Assembly (NCBI GenBank): GCA_018402765.1
Contig: JAGYIE010000005.1
Span: 17,082 to 81,081, forward strand
DNA: 64,000 nt
Direction of reading: 5' to 3'
Origin: Vicingaceae bacterium
Lineage (GTDB): Bacteria > Bacteroidota > Bacteroidia > Flavobacteriales_E > Vicingaceae
Shown: positions 5,777 through 50,545 of the stretch, in pieces
How the letters are laid out: every line of letters starts with the position of its first letter
Numbering within the stretch: the first letter of the stretch is position 1
The notes under the pieces: generated by a model
What the model saw: only the letters and a program-made list of their open reading frames with translations
Told to the model about the DNA's origin: nothing
Database searches by the model: none
Position numbers and translations under genes: made by a program

Positions 5777-6187
5777 TTAACGTATTTCAGTTCCTTCGTT
5801 GATATAAAAAGGAAACACAATATTGTCCCTTACATTATTGGAGTGTATTTCATAATCAATATGCACACTAATCACACCATCAAGAATATTAGATTTAACT
5901 GTACTAACATCATGCACTATAATACGAGGCTCAAATGCTCGTAATCCTTGTTTTATTTCAAAAGAAAGCCTGCCAAGCAAACCATTATTGGTTTTATCAA
6001 ACTGATAATCATGAATGATACATCCAAAATCAGATCGCATGATACGCTCTCCTATATGCGTTTGGAAAAATAAGGATAAACTTTGTCTAATATCCTCATC
6101 TTTACTTACCATAATTATTTCTGCATTCTCTTTATCAAAGGTTGGAGGGAAGCCCCACCCTTTGCCTAAAAATGATTTTTCATCCAT
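5777..6187 (-). CDS. GPW/gp25 family baseplate wedge protein (Afp9-like)
   Basis: FLGKGWGFPPTF...GERIMRSDFGC...FEPRI...NIVFPFY. Confidence 0.93.
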   Translation of the reverse strand: MDEKSFLGKGWGFPPTFDKENAEIIMVSKDEDIRQSLSLFFQTHIGERIMRSDFGCIIHDYQFDKTNNGLLGRLSFEIKQGLRAFEPRIIVHDVSTVKSNILDGVISVHIDYEIHSNNVRDNIVFPFYINEGTEIR

Positions 6188-7999
6188 TTAGTTAATGTTT
6201 ACAGCCGATCCTTTTACGTTTACTTGTCCTGAAGCATTGATATCAACACCACTTCCACCTTTCGCTGATAACTTCGTTTTAGCTTCCATTGTTATGTTAT
6301 TTCCGCTTAGCTTTATACCATCACCACCGCTACCACTTGCAATTACTCCCTTATTCGCGGTCAAGTTTATGGCTCCACTCGCTGTAAGTGTTATATCTTT
6401 AGGACTAGTAATGGTGATTCCGTCTGCGGATGTTTTTATTTCATTCTCATTCTGATCAGTAATAGTTATACCTTCAGCAGATTCATCAATAACAATACTA
6501 TTGCTTTTAGGCGTGCTAATCGTTATTTTTTTATTTTCATCATCAAACTCTAAAGTTAGTTTACTTTTAGATATAAAGGCTTTGAAATTATTTTGATTAT
6601 CTACAGTTTTGTAGGGCTTATTGGTGGTAGTGTATAAACCTCCAATAACTACTGGTTGTCGTGGATCTTCTCCTATAAATGCAACAACTACTTGAGATTC
6701 TACTTCCGGTATAAAAAATGATCCTGCTTCTGATGAAGTGTAAAAGTGGGTTAGTCTTGCCCACATTCCTTCACCAGAGTTTTTTAGTGCAGGTATTAAT
6801 ACTTGAATTCTATTTTGATCTAATGGGTCAGCATCCACTTTTTTTACAGTACCGATGTATAATCCGGAAACTTTTTTAAAACCAGTATTAAAATCACTTA
6901 TTTTTTTATCAAAAAAGTTTTGGGAAACTCCAAACCCTATTTCAGTGGTGTAGTTACCACTTTCTATTTCATGAGTTAACTTGGTAATTAATACCAATCC
7001 ATCAAAGTTTTTACCAAATCCACTTAATTCGGCCACTGAGCCTAAATCTAGTGTATTAACGCCCTTAAACTTCGCTTTTCCAGTAATTCTATTCAGTCTA
7101 GAATATTGTAAAAATGCATTGGAAATTTCTTTTACTTCTGTTTGCTCTAGTACTTGTGGTAAATTAAATTCGATACCGTTAGCACTAGTAAGCGATGAAA
7201 TTTCAGAGGCCTTAAGCGTATCGTTCTCAGTTAAGCTGGGCTCTTCTGCTACGCTAGTAACGGTTTCATTTTTAAATATATCCCAAGAGTTAACCGTCAT
7301 GTCGGCTAATTGATTGGCGGCATTTATCTGGGCATCAAAACTAATGGTAGATTCCCCATTGGTGATGGTCACCAAGCTATCGTCAGTAACTGTTATTAAT
7401 TTTTTAGTGGTTAGTTTATTATCAGAGTTAAAAACCACTTGACTGTTCAGTTTTGTTCGCTCCAATATAAATTCCCAATCATTTATGTTGTATTTTGGTA
7501 AAAAAGGGTGAGTAGTATTCGTGTCTTCTATTTCTGTCGTTAGTCCGCTTACATTTTGAGTTAGTATGGTAAATAGGTCACTATCTAATTTATCTTCATA
7601 TACATCAGTAGTATAAGAATTAGTTAATTTAATTGCTTTGTCTACTGCTTCTATAATGAGTAAACTTTTCCACGGTTTAGTTACAAAACCTTCTTGGAGG
7701 CTGATGCGCAGCTTTTCTATAATACCTTTAAAAATTACTTTATTCTCCTGGCTATATCCTGCCTCGATTTCAATTTCGTTTCCGGGCTTAAAATCATCGT
7801 TTTCGCTTTCATCGAATGTATTTAAATATGGATCACCACCCGAAATAGAAAGCTGCGCTCTACTTATTTTATTCACTTCTTTTTCAACCTTTAGTTTTAT
7901 AACCATAAAAGAAGAGTTTATTTCATTTCCATTTACCGTTATAGTAAAAGAAAGTGGTTTAAATAAGGAGTCATCAGGTGAATTACCATTCTCAGCCAT
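6188..7999 (-). CDS. VgrG/gp27-gp5 type spike protein (Afp8-like)
   Basis: KEVNKISRAQL N-terminus; gp5 OB-fold WARLTHFY...GSFFIPEVESQVVVAFIGEDPRQPVVIGGLY; C-terminal beta-helix repeats. Confidence 0.92.
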   Translation of the reverse strand: MAENGNSPDDSLFKPLSFTITVNGNEINSSFMVIKLKVEKEVNKISRAQLSISGGDPYLNTFDESENDDFKPGNEIEIEAGYSQENKVIFKGIIEKLRISLQEGFVTKPWKSLLIIEAVDKAIKLTNSYTTDVYEDKLDSDLFTILTQNVSGLTTEIEDTNTTHPFLPKYNINDWEFILERTKLNSQVVFNSDNKLTTKKLITVTDDSLVTITNGESTISFDAQINAANQLADMTVNSWDIFKNETVTSVAEEPSLTENDTLKASEISSLTSANGIEFNLPQVLEQTEVKEISNAFLQYSRLNRITGKAKFKGVNTLDLGSVAELSGFGKNFDGLVLITKLTHEIESGNYTTEIGFGVSQNFFDKKISDFNTGFKKVSGLYIGTVKKVDADPLDQNRIQVLIPALKNSGEGMWARLTHFYTSSEAGSFFIPEVESQVVVAFIGEDPRQPVVIGGLYTTTNKPYKTVDNQNNFKAFISKSKLTLEFDDENKKITISTPKSNSIVIDESAEGITITDQNENEIKTSADGITITSPKDITLTASGAINLTANKGVIASGSGGDGIKLSGNNITMEAKTKLSAKGGSGVDINASGQVNVKGSAVNIN

Positions 8000-8694
8000 T
8001 AGTATTTCTTTTTAATTGGAGGGACTTCTAAACTGCTTCCTTTTTTTAATCGTCTGAAAGAACTTAGATTATTTACTTCAGCCAGTTTAAGATAGTATTT
8101 TTTGTTATGGTAATACTTTTCGCTAAGGCTAACTATAGAATCACCTTCTTTTACAATTGGCAATTTGGTTATATCAGGACTTTGAAAAAGTTTTTGTCCA
8201 TCAAATTCTAGTTCTACTACCGTAATAGAAACTTCTGCGCGTAGCGGAACTCCATCCGAATTAAAAAAAGTATAAGTGTAATTAAAGCCTTCCACACTCC
8301 CAAAAACATTAAGTGTCCCCATTCCCCAATTTATCATTACAAAAGGAGGTCTGTGAGTAGAATCTACGGGTATTACAGTTAATTTTTCTAGCTTGGAAAT
8401 AGAAGACGATACAGAACCCATATCAGCTGCAGATACACCATCTGGTTCAAATGGTATAGCACCTGTATTATCTATAGTAAATTTAAATTGAACCCTTCTT
8501 CTAACAAAGGTAATAGCTCTACTAGTAATGGATGAGCCTTCTGCATTTACCTCCTCTTCAGCTTCTTGCTCAGTTCTTCCTACTTCAAAAGAAATATCAG
8601 AAGGATTTAATTGCAAAGTGTAGCTACCCAACTCTCCCATTGATCCGCCGCTGTCTGATTCATATCCTGTAATTTCTAAGCTATTTATATTCAT
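7999..8694 (-). CDS. CIS tube-initiator/hub protein with C-terminal LysM-like domain (Afp7-like)
   Basis: LQLNPSDI; HRPPFVMINWG; FFNSDGVPLRAEV; C-terminal VKEGDSIVSLSEKYY...LAEVNNL. Confidence 0.88.
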   Translation of the reverse strand: MNINSLEITGYESDSGGSMGELGSYTLQLNPSDISFEVGRTEQEAEEEVNAEGSSITSRAITFVRRRVQFKFTIDNTGAIPFEPDGVSAADMGSVSSSISKLEKLTVIPVDSTHRPPFVMINWGMGTLNVFGSVEGFNYTYTFFNSDGVPLRAEVSITVVELEFDGQKLFQSPDITKLPIVKEGDSIVSLSEKYYHNKKYYLKLAEVNNLSSFRRLKKGSSLEVPPIKKKY

Positions 8695-8696
8695 AA

Positions 8697-8903
8697 TTAG
8701 TAGCTTAGTTTATCGTTTAATCTGGATAATACTTCGTTCACACATTCAGTAATAAGTGCTCTTTTTTCAGATTCACTTAAGCCTACTTTGGATTTATTTA
8801 CTTTGGAATTTGCTTCAATTAATTTAATAATATCTTCTTCACTTGCGCTACTATTACCATTTACTTTTCCTTTAATCACCAATTCTTTTATTACTACAGC
8901 CAT
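8697..8903 (-). CDS. DUF5908-like small eCIS protein (Afp6-like)
   Basis: MAVVIKELVIKGKV...LITECVNEVLSRL; size and position between tube 2 and LysM protein. Confidence 0.8.
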   Translation of the reverse strand: MAVVIKELVIKGKVNGNSSASEEDIIKLIEANSKVNKSKVGLSESEKRALITECVNEVLSRLNDKLSY

Positions 8904-8917
8904 AATCTAAAAGATGT

Positions 8918-9436
8918 CTAATTATTAAAATATTGATTAAAATGGGTGTAAGTAAGTTTCAAACGTTCCACTGCAATTTCAGACTTATCAGCATTAAATG
9001 CACCTATTTCTAATCCTTTTGGGTAGCAATTAAAAAACGACCAAGCCATTATTATTTGTTCTTGGTTATTTTCATTATTCTCCATTAAAAACACGTTTAC
9101 AGTTTTTAATGTTACTTGATAGCTAAATGAGTCGTTGGTTAATAAGTCATTAACCCATGTTGCCATGGGTGATTCTCTTTTTATTAACCCTCTAGAAAGC
9201 ACTAAGTCTGAATAGGTTGTAGTTCCTGGTAAGTGATATTGTCTGTTATTGCTGCCAGCATCTGTTATAGCGCTCGTATTTAGGTCTGCACTTATCCCTG
9301 AAATAGATTGGAAAAATGATTCATCAGGATCAAAGAAGATACTAGATAGTGGCCCATCTAAACCTACTAGTTGGTTAGTCGATGTTACCTTAAACTTAAA
9401 ACCCAATGCTGGGTAATCATTTTTATCGATATTCAT
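8918..9436 (-). CDS. Phage tail tube gp19-like protein 2 (Afp5-like)
   Basis: YPALGFKFKV...FQSISGIS...YSDLVLSRGL...AWSFFNCYPK...AVERLKLTY; ATG at 9436 preferred over track TTG at 9445. Confidence 0.9.
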   Translation of the reverse strand: MNIDKNDYPALGFKFKVTSTNQLVGLDGPLSSIFFDPDESFFQSISGISADLNTSAITDAGSNNRQYHLPGTTTYSDLVLSRGLIKRESPMATWVNDLLTNDSFSYQVTLKTVNVFLMENNENNQEQIIMAWSFFNCYPKGLEIGAFNADKSEIAVERLKLTYTHFNQYFNN

Positions 9437-9489
9437 AGATAGCAATAATTTTCAACTACTATAGAAGTGTTGAGAATAATAGTAGTAGT

Positions 9490-9539
9490 AAAAAAACAAT
9501 TATCCACTGTATCATTGTAAATGCTACAGCGAATAATTG
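9490..9539 (-). terminator. Intrinsic terminator after the major tube gene
   Basis: mRNA CAAUUAUUCGCUGUAgCAUU-uac-AAUGaUACAGUGGAUAAUUG-UUUUUUU: 19 bp (2 G.U, 1 mismatch), triloop, U7 tail. Confidence 0.75.
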
Positions 9540-9560
9540 CTATCTTAATGAGTGTTTAAT

Positions 9561-10031
9561 TTATGCTACTTCTGAGGTCATTCCTTCATGAGCTAGGACC
9601 ATTGTTTCGATTCCTGCTTCTGATGATTGAGAATTCATATCAGTTGGTGTAACTTTTTGTGGAAAAGCATTTGTTAGGGTCCACGTCATTCTTGGAGTAG
9701 CTGTTTCGTCTAATAAACGAATAACTACTGTCAAACGCTCATAAGTGTTTAATGAAATTTTTGAAATCCAATCAAAGAATTGGTTATCATCAGCAAATAC
9801 CCCTTTTTTAAGAGTTACATCCCCGTATTTCATTAATCCGGGCATCTTAATGGGTGTATGATTAGGACTATTTCCGTGTCTGTATTCGATTACTTCAGTT
9901 TCTACATCTAATCCACTAACTTCCTGAAAAGGTAAGTCTGTAAAATCGCCAATATCTACTGAAAAATAAAACTTTGGTAAAGGCCAAAACTGATCTTGTT
10001 CTGCACCTGTTCCTGCTGTTGGTAATGCCAT
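9561..10031 (-). CDS. Major tail tube protein, gp19 family (Afp1-like)
   Basis: WPLPKFYFSV...FQEVSGLDVETEVIEYRHG...KMPGLMKYGDVTLKKG. Confidence 0.95.
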   Translation of the reverse strand: MALPTAGTGAEQDQFWPLPKFYFSVDIGDFTDLPFQEVSGLDVETEVIEYRHGNSPNHTPIKMPGLMKYGDVTLKKGVFADDNQFFDWISKISLNTYERLTVVIRLLDETATPRMTWTLTNAFPQKVTPTDMNSQSSEAGIETMVLAHEGMTSEVA

Positions 10032-10065: not shown

Positions 10066-11568
10066 TTATGATTTTTGTTGCTGTTGTTCAAACGTAATTA
10101 CGATGAATTCAGCAGGTCTTGTAATCGCTACTTTAACTGTCATTTTTAAAACGCCATCTAATATATCGTTTGCTGTCATAGTAGAACCAAGTCCAATTTG
10201 AATTTCATAAGCATCATCAGGAGAGTTTCCTGCTAATAAACCTGATTGCCATTGGTTACTTAAGAAATTAGCCACTGTAGCTCTTAGTGTGGACCAAGTA
10301 GTAGAGTTATTAGGAGCAAAAACAAATGCCTCTGCAGCAAATTTGATACTTTGCTCAAGGAATGTCATTGTTCTTCTTACGCTAATGTATCGATAATCTT
10401 GAGAATTTCCGTCTAGTGTTCTTGCACCCCATACCAAAACTCCTTTACCTGCGAAGCCTCTAATAGCATTAATTGCTTTACCATTTAATGGTAAGTTAAG
10501 TTCCTCTTGGTTGTCGTTATTGATATCTACTGAAGGCGATACAACTGCTCCTAAGCTGATGTTAGCCGGAGATTTCGCTACACTTACAGAGTTGTCGCAC
10601 ATGGTATAGGCACCTGCCAATGCAGCACTCGGAGGCATTAAATTAATCATGCTCCCCATATCCTCTATAATTGCATTTATCGCAGGGCTCACTACCTTAA
10701 GAGTAGATTGAAGAGATTTAATTGCATCTGCATCAGTTATGTCTGCTATCTTGGCAATTTCTTTTTTAATTCCTTCAGCTCTTGCTTCAGTAATTACACC
10801 ATTAGCCAGGTTCTTGTCTACTTCTGTATTTAAAACCTCAATCAATACCTCTTTATTATCGATTCGTGTAAAATCTAAATCAGCAGATTTTACAATGTTA
10901 GTCTGTATGTATGGGTAATAAGCAGCTCCCCACATTAGAAAGTTAGAACCTACGCCTTCTCTAAATTTATCAACGATATCATCTTCATCAAAGGTACGCT
11001 CTTTATCACCATCATAAACATCTAGTATAGCAAAACGATTCTTCATTTTATAACCACAATGACTTAACATTTGTGCCTGAACAGCGAAGCAATCGTCAGC
11101 TGAAAGTAAAACTGCATCAGGAACTACCAAAAGCGTAGGCTCTAGTGATTTCTCTAAGGCTGCTATACCACCATTGTTTTTACTGGTTAATTGATCCCCA
11201 TTAATTTCCTCTCCGTATAAGCCTACAGAAACGATATAGCAATCGGCTCCACCATTTGCGTAAAATAAACGAATCGAATTAAAGAGCATGTATCTGCTAG
11301 CATCCAAGAAACTCAGTTGAAATCCTTGAGCACTTGCTTCGTTTGCTTCGATAATAAATTTTGTATCCGGGGCACCACCGAATAATTCTACAAATTGACC
11401 AAAGGAAGTAACTTTTGTAGGTTTGTTGATTAATGATTTTGACCCTCTCGCAGCTTTGGCCGTATAACCTACAAATGCAGGCAAGGCTGTTTGCACGGGT
11501 ACCACTGTTGAACCGAAGGAACTTTTTTCTTCGATATACACACCGGGAGTCGCTAATGAAGTAGACAT
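10066..11568 (-). CDS. Contractile tail sheath protein (Afp2/3/4-like)
   Basis: TPGVYIEE...TALPAFVGYT; VWGARTLDGNSQDYRYISVRRT; RPAEFIVITF. Confidence 0.96.
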   Translation of the reverse strand: MSTSLATPGVYIEEKSSFGSTVVPVQTALPAFVGYTAKAARGSKSLINKPTKVTSFGQFVELFGGAPDTKFIIEANEASAQGFQLSFLDASRYMLFNSIRLFYANGGADCYIVSVGLYGEEINGDQLTSKNNGGIAALEKSLEPTLLVVPDAVLLSADDCFAVQAQMLSHCGYKMKNRFAILDVYDGDKERTFDEDDIVDKFREGVGSNFLMWGAAYYPYIQTNIVKSADLDFTRIDNKEVLIEVLNTEVDKNLANGVITEARAEGIKKEIAKIADITDADAIKSLQSTLKVVSPAINAIIEDMGSMINLMPPSAALAGAYTMCDNSVSVAKSPANISLGAVVSPSVDINNDNQEELNLPLNGKAINAIRGFAGKGVLVWGARTLDGNSQDYRYISVRRTMTFLEQSIKFAAEAFVFAPNNSTTWSTLRATVANFLSNQWQSGLLAGNSPDDAYEIQIGLGSTMTANDILDGVLKMTVKVAITRPAEFIVITFEQQQQKS

Positions 11569-11710
11569 ATGATTAAAATTAGTAATTTACTTAAAAAAGA
11601 TTGACTAAGCCAAATTAAGGAATAATGATCTTTATTACCTATTTTTTTTATTAACAACTGATTGATTAATTGTTAATTAAAAAGTTTATTTTGTATTTTG
11701 TACTTGATTT

Positions 11711-12544
11711 TTAAATATTTATATAAATATCCGTTATGAATGTATCGTGAATATTGCTGAAACTTAAATTATTAATTGATGGCTGAGGAATATATTTTTT
11801 ATAATTATGAAAGGTTTGATCTTTCTTTTTTAGGTAGTATTTGAAGTCTTGCTGTTCTTTTACCATTATTGTGTTGGGTGAAATAGCAGCATAGACGTTT
11901 TTACCATTTGACAATATCCTTTTTTGAAAAGAAACCTCTATCGCCTTTTTCCCTTCTTCTTCTATTACGTAATCAGCGATTTCTTTTTCGTCTTGAATAT
12001 TGGTAAGATTATAACGAACTATTGATTGCCTTGCTTTGAACCTAATGGAATAGTTTACGGATTCCTTGAGCCTTTTGTCAATTAACTCTCCAAAAAACTC
12101 GTTATTCTTGTTTAGGTTCAATGTTATCTTGCCTATTATACCTTTCCCAAAATACGCATCTGTTTCACAATCTTTATCGGTATAATCTTTAGAGTGAAGA
12201 TTGGTGTTTGAAAAATCGTTTGTAAATAACAATCTTTTATCTGTACTGTAAGTTATATCTGTGTAATTTAAGAAATAGATATCGTCTACAAATAGGTAGA
12301 AATCTAGCTGCACTTCATTGTTAAAGCTAGCACTATTACAGCGCTCTATATTGTCACCTAATAAAACAATACCTGCAGGAATAGCTTTAATTTTTAGTTG
12401 ATAATCTTTTAGTAGTTCCGCAGTTTCCATTGATGGTATTATTCGTATTTTTTCTATAATCCCACTTGTGAAGTAATTGTGATATACAGTAACGGATATT
12501 AACTGGCGGTGATTACTACTATATTTAAAACTATTTTGAAGCAT
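11711..12544 (-). CDS. Hypothetical eCIS-associated protein next to the cap gene (possible cap adaptor)
   Basis: 277 aa; LISVTVYHNYF start; between DUF4255 and sheath; function inferred from position only. Confidence 0.6.
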   Translation of the reverse strand: MLQNSFKYSSNHRQLISVTVYHNYFTSGIIEKIRIIPSMETAELLKDYQLKIKAIPAGIVLLGDNIERCNSASFNNEVQLDFYLFVDDIYFLNYTDITYSTDKRLLFTNDFSNTNLHSKDYTDKDCETDAYFGKGIIGKITLNLNKNNEFFGELIDKRLKESVNYSIRFKARQSIVRYNLTNIQDEKEIADYVIEEEGKKAIEVSFQKRILSNGKNVYAAISPNTIMVKEQQDFKYYLKKKDQTFHNYKKYIPQPSINNLSFSNIHDTFITDIYINI

Positions 12545-12555
12545 AATTTTATCTA

Positions 12556-13092
12556 TTAACCTATTACCAATGCTATATCTTCACTAAAGGTAGTCGAATT
12601 GAAATAAATTTGTTTGAATTTATAAGCTACTGAAGGTATATAGTTTGCTCCAATATTCCCCCATAGTTTACTAATTTCTTCAATAGAAATATTTAACATT
12701 TCTGCATTTATCTTATTCACTCCTGAAGGCATGCCTGGTGTATTTGAACTCGTAAATGTATTGTTCGCCTGAAAAAATTCGATTACAATAGAGATGTATT
12801 TCAATGCCTCTAAATAATTGAAGTTTGGGAAATGGGCGGAAAACATTAAGTGCAGGTTTACTTTAACTGTTGGGTTTAATCCTGCATTCGCATTAAAATT
12901 TGCATTCTTTGAAACCTTTTCTTCTTCAATGTTTAATAAGAATATTGTAATTTTGTTTTCAATTTCTTGATTTAAATTACCTTTTAAATCTACTAAGCTG
13001 CTAACAATTACTGCATCTTCATTTAGTGAAAGCTTGTTTTTTATGTGCTCGTTTAGTTTATTACCGATTGATGTAATTACGTTATGAATCAT
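12556..13092 (-). CDS. DUF4255 cap/tail-terminator protein (Afp16/Pvc16-like)
   Basis: VIVSSLVD...ITIFLLNIEEE...LHLMFSAHF...YLEALKYIS.VIEFFQ...ISKLWGNIGANYIPSVAYK. Confidence 0.88.
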   Translation of the reverse strand: MIHNVITSIGNKLNEHIKNKLSLNEDAVIVSSLVDLKGNLNQEIENKITIFLLNIEEEKVSKNANFNANAGLNPTVKVNLHLMFSAHFPNFNYLEALKYISIVIEFFQANNTFTSSNTPGMPSGVNKINAEMLNISIEEISKLWGNIGANYIPSVAYKFKQIYFNSTTFSEDIALVIG

Positions 13093-37609: not shown

Positions 37610-37644
37610 AAAAACGCCCCGAACAAATTTGTTTGGGGCGTTTT
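37610..37644 (+). terminator. Intrinsic terminator, potentially bidirectional
   Basis: AAAACGCCCCGAACAAATTTGTTTGGGGCGTTTT. Confidence 0.8.
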
Positions 37645-50504: not shown

Positions 50505-50545
50505 AAAAAAAGCCTCATTCTTATTTTAAGAATGAGGCTTTTTTT
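50505..50545. terminator. Bidirectional intrinsic terminator
   Basis: A7-GCCTCATTCTT-ATTTT-AAGAATGAGGC-T7 between convergent genes. Confidence 0.9.

Follow-up and report, generated by a model that had tools for sequence, protein, structure and literature searches.

We examined a 64,000-nucleotide stretch of DNA (hereafter the window) from a Vicingaceae bacterium (contig JAGYIE010000005.1 of assembly GCA_018402765.1, positions 17,082 to 81,081), in which a Pfam scan placed a contractile injection system (CIS) operon of the AlgoCIS/PVC/Afp type on the minus strand, at about 2-13 kb. Our focus is the spacer between two tube genes of this operon and the terminator-type hairpin that it carries. 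Tube 1 (9561-10031, minus strand, 156 aa) is the major inner tube protein, similar to Alg1, Pvc1 and Afp1. It matches Pfam Phage_T4_gp19 with E = 1.7e-43, and its best matches in the PDB are 9r9h_B, the AlgoCIS chain 7adz_1a, Anabaena All3324, Pvc1 and Afp1. Tube 2 (8918-9436, minus strand, 172 aa) belongs to the same Pfam family (E = 6.9e-25) and matches single-layer tube-initiator chains in the PDB (7b5h_AM, 9rce_I, 7aeb_Y and Pvc5, with All3323 also among the best), identifying it as a tube initiator of the Alg5/Pvc5/All3323 kind. The tube-1 stop codon TAA occupies 9563-9561 and the tube-2 ATG 9436-9434, leaving a spacer of 124 nt. This ATG is kept as the start in orthologs; a TTG at 9445 is not conserved. 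A preliminary description of the locus, made from the sequence, had assigned the two genes in the same way, and its premise that the tube is needed in far higher copy than single-layer parts is sound: the passages of the AlgoCIS structural paper that deal with the tube describe 22 hexamer layers of Alg1 and a single layer of Alg5, the latter forming the tube-initiator complex together with Alg7 (PMC8894135).

The hairpin (9497-9540, minus strand) begins 20 nt past the tube-1 stop on the coding strand; the opposite strand lacks a T-tract. Its stem runs from C9539-G9497 to U9520-A9516 and comprises 19 pairs, three of them G.U, with one G.A mismatch (9524/9512) and a loop of 3-5 nt. A U7 tract (9490-9496, minus strand) directly adjoins G9497 on the 3' side. 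The predicted energy is -20.8 kcal/mol for the hairpin alone and -24.7 kcal/mol with short flanks, the latter corresponding to z = -8.4 against dinucleotide shuffles. Hairpin and tract are thus present as first described. Scanning both strands of the window (128 kb of strand) for hairpin-plus-T-tract sites of -15 kcal/mol or lower returned five, of which only this one falls within the CIS operon. Elsewhere in the window, perfect G+C-rich palindromes flanked by A- and T-runs (50507-50543 and 37613-37642) reach -21 kcal/mol on both strands and score as bidirectional terminators; they illustrate the canonical terminators of this genome, unlike the long A/U-rich stem at 9497-9540.

Other identities for the spacer were considered and rejected. 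It is not a dispersed repeat or a miniature inverted-repeat transposable element with 14-bp terminal inverted repeats, being single-copy in genome and window: a search for further copies in its own 3.1-Mb genome gave only chance matches of 14-27 nt. Nor is it a known RNA family, as Rfam returned just a spurious mir-586 hit at 24 bits (threshold 89) that reflects the hairpin shape.

We sought to assess how far this arrangement extends, using 80 loci with tube-1 relatives taken from a scan of one genome per species. Where tube 1 is at least 71% identical, the spacer between the tube genes is typically about 70-230 nt long (range 16-228 nt), and such long-spacer loci span many Bacteroidota families, including Flavobacteriaceae, Cyclobacteriaceae, Saprospiraceae and Chitinophagaceae. 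Nearly all of the long spacers open with a strong hairpin and a T-tract. Under a uniform definition (a single hairpin of -10 kcal/mol or lower with a T-rich stretch behind it, no further than 120 nt from the tube-1 stop), hairpin and T-tract were found at the tube 1-tube 2 junction in 58 of 64 related Bacteroidota loci, compared with 12 of 301 same-strand control windows (4%) drawn from the same loci. Three of the misses (L021, L024 and L042) have a terminator-like hairpin by eye, lying beyond 120 nt or apart from the T-tract, and a fourth (L031) has a hairpin just under the cut-off, at -8.4 kcal/mol. The other two, L037 with its 16-nt spacer and L070, which contains N's, show no convincing hairpin plus T-tract. 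Hairpin and T-tract are also present in the loci from Algoriphagus metagenome-assembled genomes (L036, L049 and L051).

Clustered at 70% identity, the hairpins of this clade form 29 sequence groups; what is retained is thus the feature, and its sequence turns over. A hairpin that is retained by position and replaced in sequence is the main comparative argument that the element has a function. In a few loci the gene past the terminator is of another kind: in L044, L046 and L047 (after about 3471 or 2669), and also in L081, the major tube gene occurs a second time there, starting MAAPTAGSGGEQDQ. An Alg5-type match lies about 2.7 kb further on in L044, and likewise in L049, where the part inspected showed no paralog.

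Given these patterns, we consider it probable that the hairpin and U7 tract at 9540-9490 form a Rho-independent terminator which also caps the upstream 3' end, and which splits the CIS operon into two tiers. The first tier would be an abundant message for sheath and major tube, ending at the hairpin. The second would consist of a minority of read-through transcripts carrying the genes for the tube initiator, plug, LysM-tube protein, spike and baseplate, and the outcome would be that sheath and tube subunits outnumber single-layer parts by roughly 20:1. The stable stem, the adjoining U-tract and the post-stop placement kept in relatives are all features of intrinsic terminators, and a terminator after tube 1 fits a particle that requires about 22 layers of tube and a single one of initiator, as counted in the tube passages of the AlgoCIS paper (PMC8894135). 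The preliminary description had also proposed termination here, and it is comparative evidence that upholds this proposal, namely the conserved position of hairpin and T-tract after tube 1 in the CIS lineage. From these features we infer the stopping of RNA polymerase at the hairpin, the dependence of the downstream genes on read-through, and the size and efficiency of the effect. A low-power scan for the Bacteroidota -7 promoter motif TAnnTTTG after the terminator found none in the window spacer and one in 40 related spacers, against 1.2 expected.

Several observations weigh against this interpretation. The motif TAnnTTTG is barely enriched upstream of the sheath genes as well (10 of 61, against 6.1), which makes the promoter scan weak, and re-initiation past the terminator is possible. 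The stem at 9497-9540 is unusually long, A/U-rich and interrupted by three G.U pairs, whereas the other strong terminators of the window are short and G+C-rich. In the sister clade, made up of loci with a tube-1 identity of 63% or less (L084-L099), a tube-2 start was called in 14 loci. Twelve of these have just 2-6 nt between the tube genes, with neither a spacer nor a terminator; the remaining two have a 1-nt overlap (L099) and a 197-nt spacer (L091). There are thus two distinct operon designs for the same protein pair, and the terminator device is not universal in CIS. Finally, in the nearest homologous spacers of a different haplotype (L100, L105 and L106) the U-tract is degraded to TCTCTTAT / UCUCUUAU, with the hairpin retained. 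The conserved function could therefore be that of the hairpin itself, in 3' protection or processing, and not termination. We regard the broken U-tract as the main caveat for a pure terminator reading, since what selection has acted on in this haplotype is evidently the hairpin.

These homologous spacers were sought by tube-2 protein searches, contig look-ups and scans of genome and metagenome contigs, and just two haplotypes were recovered: that of the window, shared by L104, and that of L100, L105 and L106. The spacer of L104, a metagenomic contig, is identical to that of the window except for T6 in place of T7 at 9490-9496, and its tube-2 gene is split into two open reading frames (ORFs); an error in the homopolymer or the assembly is one explanation of these differences, and genuine variation in length the other. 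The L100-type loci are identical to one another, with tube 2 86-87% identical to that of the window and a spacer only 74% identical, compared with 84% for the whole locus. In spite of this divergence, all 17 compared stem pairs of the hairpin are kept. Compensatory double changes affect two of them, turning U.G into A-U in one and A-U into G-C in the other; a third is altered on one side only (U-A to U.G), and the G.A mismatch of the window stem is a U-A pair in the L100 type. A second, small hairpin (UCAAC...GUUGA, 9452-9473, minus strand), which the preliminary description had noted between the terminator and the tube-2 start, is likewise present. At its position the L100 type has a better hairpin, CUUCA-AUUG-UGAAG flanked by CAAC and GUUG, and this stretch, 82% identical between the two haplotypes, is the most conserved part of the spacer. 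The next-closest loci, L101 (2750-3000) and L103 (2585-3000), in which tube 2 is about 65% identical, have much longer spacers (250 and 415 nt) and share a different terminator, AAAGCCATTAAA...TTTAATGGCTTT followed by a T-run.

The retention of the hairpin by compensatory change despite a lost U-tract is what would be expected if the element were mainly a protective or processing hairpin, as in differential decay of the malEFG type, or an RNase III site provided by the long and almost unbroken duplex. Once an endonuclease had cut the full-length transcript, the hairpin would keep 3' exonucleases off the sheath-tube part, and the part downstream would decay. The hairpin is indeed a stable intergenic structure lying 3' of the gene for the more abundant product, and its stem exceeds what a terminator needs, reaching about 29 stacked pairs in the window (together with an outer helix described below) and 23 in L100. 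There is precedent for such protection in malE-malF and many other E. coli operons (PMC5927463), and the hairpin after hcp3 in enterohaemorrhagic E. coli (EHEC) stabilises hcp3 mRNA (PMC13141884). A pure stabiliser would have no need of the T-tract that accompanies the hairpin in 58 of the 64 loci, though, and most stems of the clade, at 10-15 bp, are too short for RNase III. Protection also overlaps with the reading that we favour, since terminator hairpins protect the 3' end as well. As the principal role of the element, we consider protection or processing unlikely.

The position of the hairpin, 20 nt past the stop codon, also bears on a purely translational role. As a "ribosome termination structure", it would keep tube-1 ribosomes from re-initiating on tube 2 and would have no major effect on transcription; stable structures are commonly found just past stop codons, where they tune re-initiation (PMC7518266). 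Yet a spacer of 124 nt already exceeds what coupled re-initiation would allow, the clade as a whole conserves the T-tract, and the spacer-less sister clade, with its genes 2-6 nt apart, points to two designs and not to an adjustment of coupling. We find such an insulator extremely improbable.

Beyond the terminator, the preliminary description had drawn attention to a long-range pairing within the spacer. The segment AGAUAGCAAUUAUU (AGATAGCAATTATT) at 9545-9532, which includes the 5' side of the hairpin base, can pair at 13 of 14 positions with 9450-9437, a target that abuts the tube-2 AUG. This complementarity is indeed present, and the target is the sole match to the 14-mer with two or fewer mismatches within the window. 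The duplex between the pre-hairpin flank and the start region has a predicted energy of -13.4 kcal/mol, compared with -4.5 +/- 2.0 kcal/mol for shuffled flanks (p ~0.003). For this one sequence the complementarity is above chance, but the pair was picked post hoc. The regulatory scheme built on it was a two-level control: most transcripts would stop at the terminator, and read-through RNA would refold to mask the tube-2 start by pairing 9445-9433 with the box at 9545-9537 and CAU at 9550-9548; a protein or RNA might toggle the switch.

Folding of 9565-9420 does not bear out the mutual exclusion of the two pairings as first described. The RNAfold minimum free energy structure (-34.4 kcal/mol, z = -5.4) is a nested one, in which UCAU and AGAUAGCA pair with UGCUAUCU and AUGA, covering the tube-2 start codon. 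On the minus strand, the 5' strand of this outer helix lies at 9537-9551 (UCAU, a 2-nt bulge and AGAUAGCAA, by minimum free energy and pair probabilities) and the 3' strand at 9433-9445 (UUGCUAUCU followed by AUGA, including the start codon). Positions 9551-9548 pair with 9433-9436, and 9545-9538 with 9437-9444, at probabilities of 0.6-0.94; the pairs of 9532-9536 with 9446-9450, which belonged to the helix as first drawn, have probabilities of at most 0.18. In both the minimum free energy structure and the ensemble, the outer helix stacks on the hairpin, which gives up only 2-4 basal pairs. The two pairings, said to be unable to coexist, thus overlap only at the hairpin base and are nested together in the prediction. 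Moreover, in transcription the 3' strand of the long-range helix follows the terminator by about 90 nt, too late to influence whether RNA polymerase stops there.

In favour of a start-hiding role, the tube-2 AUG is predicted to be paired with a probability of about 0.9. To our knowledge, Bacteroidota make no strong use of Shine-Dalgarno sequences, and on these general grounds structure at the start site should matter. We calculated the cost of opening each start, defined as the ensemble free energy needed to keep -15 to +6 unpaired when -130 to +40 is folded. For tube 2 this cost is 5.0 kcal/mol, close to the median of 4.9 kcal/mol for the 51 ATG ORFs of at least 120 aa in the window and in the middle of the operon's range (2.4-8.1 kcal/mol). 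The cost is modest because, once the outer helix is broken, the hairpin can re-form its base and local stems can arise. Within the operon, the lowest values are those of the sheath gene (2.4 kcal/mol, start 11568) and tube 1 (3.5 kcal/mol, start 10031), and the highest those of the gene for a 277-aa protein (8.1 kcal/mol) and the LysM-tube gene (7.7 kcal/mol). These modelled values suggest that translation-level tuning may run parallel to copy number. Across 37 related loci, which are not independent of one another, tube-2 starts are somewhat more structured than tube-1 starts (medians of 5.0 and 3.5 kcal/mol, Wilcoxon p = 5e-6). This trend is weak and does not involve the long-range helix.

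Comparison with related spacers speaks against the long-range helix as well. In the L100-type haplotype, five of its 12 pairs are lost and none is compensated. There the corresponding box, AGAUAAC, has a local partner, GUUAUCU, on the 3' side of the hairpin foot; this pairing extends the hairpin to 23 pairs and leaves the tube-2 start free, with an opening cost of 3.0 kcal/mol. Among 40 related loci, duplexes between a locus's own flank and its own start were no better than shuffled or cross-locus pairs; besides the window, only L021 (p = 0.003) and L072 (p = 0.04) fell under p = 0.05. The expectation that orthologous spacers would share the complementarity is therefore not borne out, either in the nearest ortholog or in the wider set.

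Taken together, the coexistence of the helices, the ordinary opening cost, the lost pairs and the missing enrichment leave the refolding of read-through RNA to hide the tube-2 start unsupported. The same goes for a protein- or RNA-triggered switch, given the coexistence, the ordinary cost and the lack of covariation. The region after hcp3 in EHEC does likewise reduce translation of the gene following a tube gene (PMC13141884), and the complementarity in the window is unusual, but we judge two-level control of this kind to be quite improbable. The added match of the box to the tube-2 start is most likely a lineage trait that has little or no weight in regulation.

A variant of this idea takes the AGAUA(G/A)C box as a movable partner, which pairs with GCUAUCU before the tube-2 AUG in the window and with GUUAUCU at the 3' base of the hairpin in L100. 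Both pairings are perfect in their own haplotype, and the partner in L100 occupies the site where the U-tract would be. If both were selected, termination would have been traded against masking of the start, perhaps toggled by a factor, and the movable box would amount to a two-mode limit on the Alg5-type protein. We think this very improbable.

The terminator reading, to which we return, places the hairpin within an operon whose listed genes are all on the minus strand. The first gene listed is that of a Pvc16-N cap protein (12556-13092), followed by that of the 277-aa protein (11711-12544) and by the Alg2-like sheath gene (10066-11568; 500 aa, Pfam Phage_sheath_1C and Phage_sheath_1). We propose that the sheath gene is the first gene of the high-output sheath-tube unit. 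Upstream of it, an intergenic region of 142 nt (11569-11710) contains the inverted repeat TTAACAATTAATCAATCAGTTGTTAA and then an A-run, and lacks an exact TAnnTTTG; it is possibly a separate promoter or operator for the sheath-tube unit. Downstream of tube 2 lie genes for a DUF5908 plug (8697-8903), a CIS_tube and LysM protein (7999-8694), a VgrG-like spike (6188-7999) and gp25 (5777-6187).

Psychroflexus salis (L020, 3001-3468) has a tube-1 protein with 99% identity to that of the window, although the DNA of the two loci is only about 71% identical; for tube 2 the identity is 58%, and the two spacers bear no relation to each other. A recombination breakpoint at the tube-1 stop was ruled out, as the DNA identity to P. 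salis stays at about 71% along the entire locus. In Saprospiraceae, Chitinophagaceae and Cyclobacteriaceae, tube 1 is 71-90% identical to that of the window. The major tube protein is thus under exceptionally strong protein-level constraint across Bacteroidota.

If the terminator reading is true, a single Bacteroidota lineage of injection systems related to AlgoCIS would set its sheath/tube-to-baseplate ratio of about 20:1 largely at the RNA level. This would matter for re-engineering such particles for protein delivery, where moving or deleting the spacer should alter yield and the control of particle length. The hairpin also offers a rule for annotation, as it separates the major tube gene from its tube-initiator paralog, and the clade provides about 29 natural, sequence-independent versions of a terminator for comparison. 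These findings do not add a new class of regulation. The start-site switch, which had made the locus look special, is unsupported, and the long-range pairing is probably not functional in that role.

Among the closest known systems is AlgoCIS of Algoriphagus machipongonensis, an extracellular CIS of subtype Ib. The passages of its structural paper that deal with its components list matching parts, namely the Alg16A cap, the cap adaptor, Alg2, Alg1, Alg5, the Alg6 plug, the Alg7 LysM tube protein, the Alg8 spike and the Alg9 gp25 protein; in the passages on these topics, the paper mentions neither transcription units nor an alg1-alg5 terminator (PMC8894135). The spacer also recalls two-state leaders such as riboswitches and attenuators, in that a segment (9537-9539, or 9532-9539 as first drawn) fits two helices, one of them over a start codon. 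It differs from them in that its competing 3' strand lies downstream of the terminator and so has no antiterminator role, in that the helices coexist, and in that the spacer shows no covariation, no conserved core resembling a ligand-binding site and no Rfam match.

The setting of subunit ratios by a terminator or protective hairpin within an operon is classical, with malE-malF and papBA as examples, and E. coli uses it widely (Dar and Sorek 2018, PMC5927463). As in these operons with differential decay, a stable intergenic stem-loop follows the gene for the product needed in excess, consistent with stoichiometry controlled at the mRNA level within one operon. Those cases were mapped experimentally, whereas ours is known from sequence and comparison. 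A further difference is that about 90% of the loci of our clade have a U-tract alongside the hairpin, which points to termination over pure decay control.

A functional parallel is the h3R region, the hcp3-vgrG3 intergenic region of EHEC's type VI secretion system (T6SS), for which a 2026 study reported a hairpin terminator directly after the tube gene that stabilises the hcp3 mRNA, and repression of vgrG3 by the region (PMC13141884). In both systems a terminator hairpin, putative in ours, adjoins the tube-subunit gene of a contractile machine and the next gene is a low-copy one (PMC13141884). The two differ in that h3R belongs to Enterobacteria and to the T6SS class, with sequences unrelated to the window spacer, and in that it has a reported promoter of its own, hcp3 and vgrG3 being separate operons (PMC13141884). 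Furthermore, the gene downstream of h3R encodes VgrG, whereas that in the window encodes a second tube-fold protein of the Alg5 type. The candidate terminator described here is thus a further case of a known kind of intra-operon ratio control, in a different CIS class and a different phylum from h3R. What our comparison of loci contributes is that, within one Bacteroidota CIS clade, the device characterises the lineage as a whole, conserved by its position after the major tube gene.

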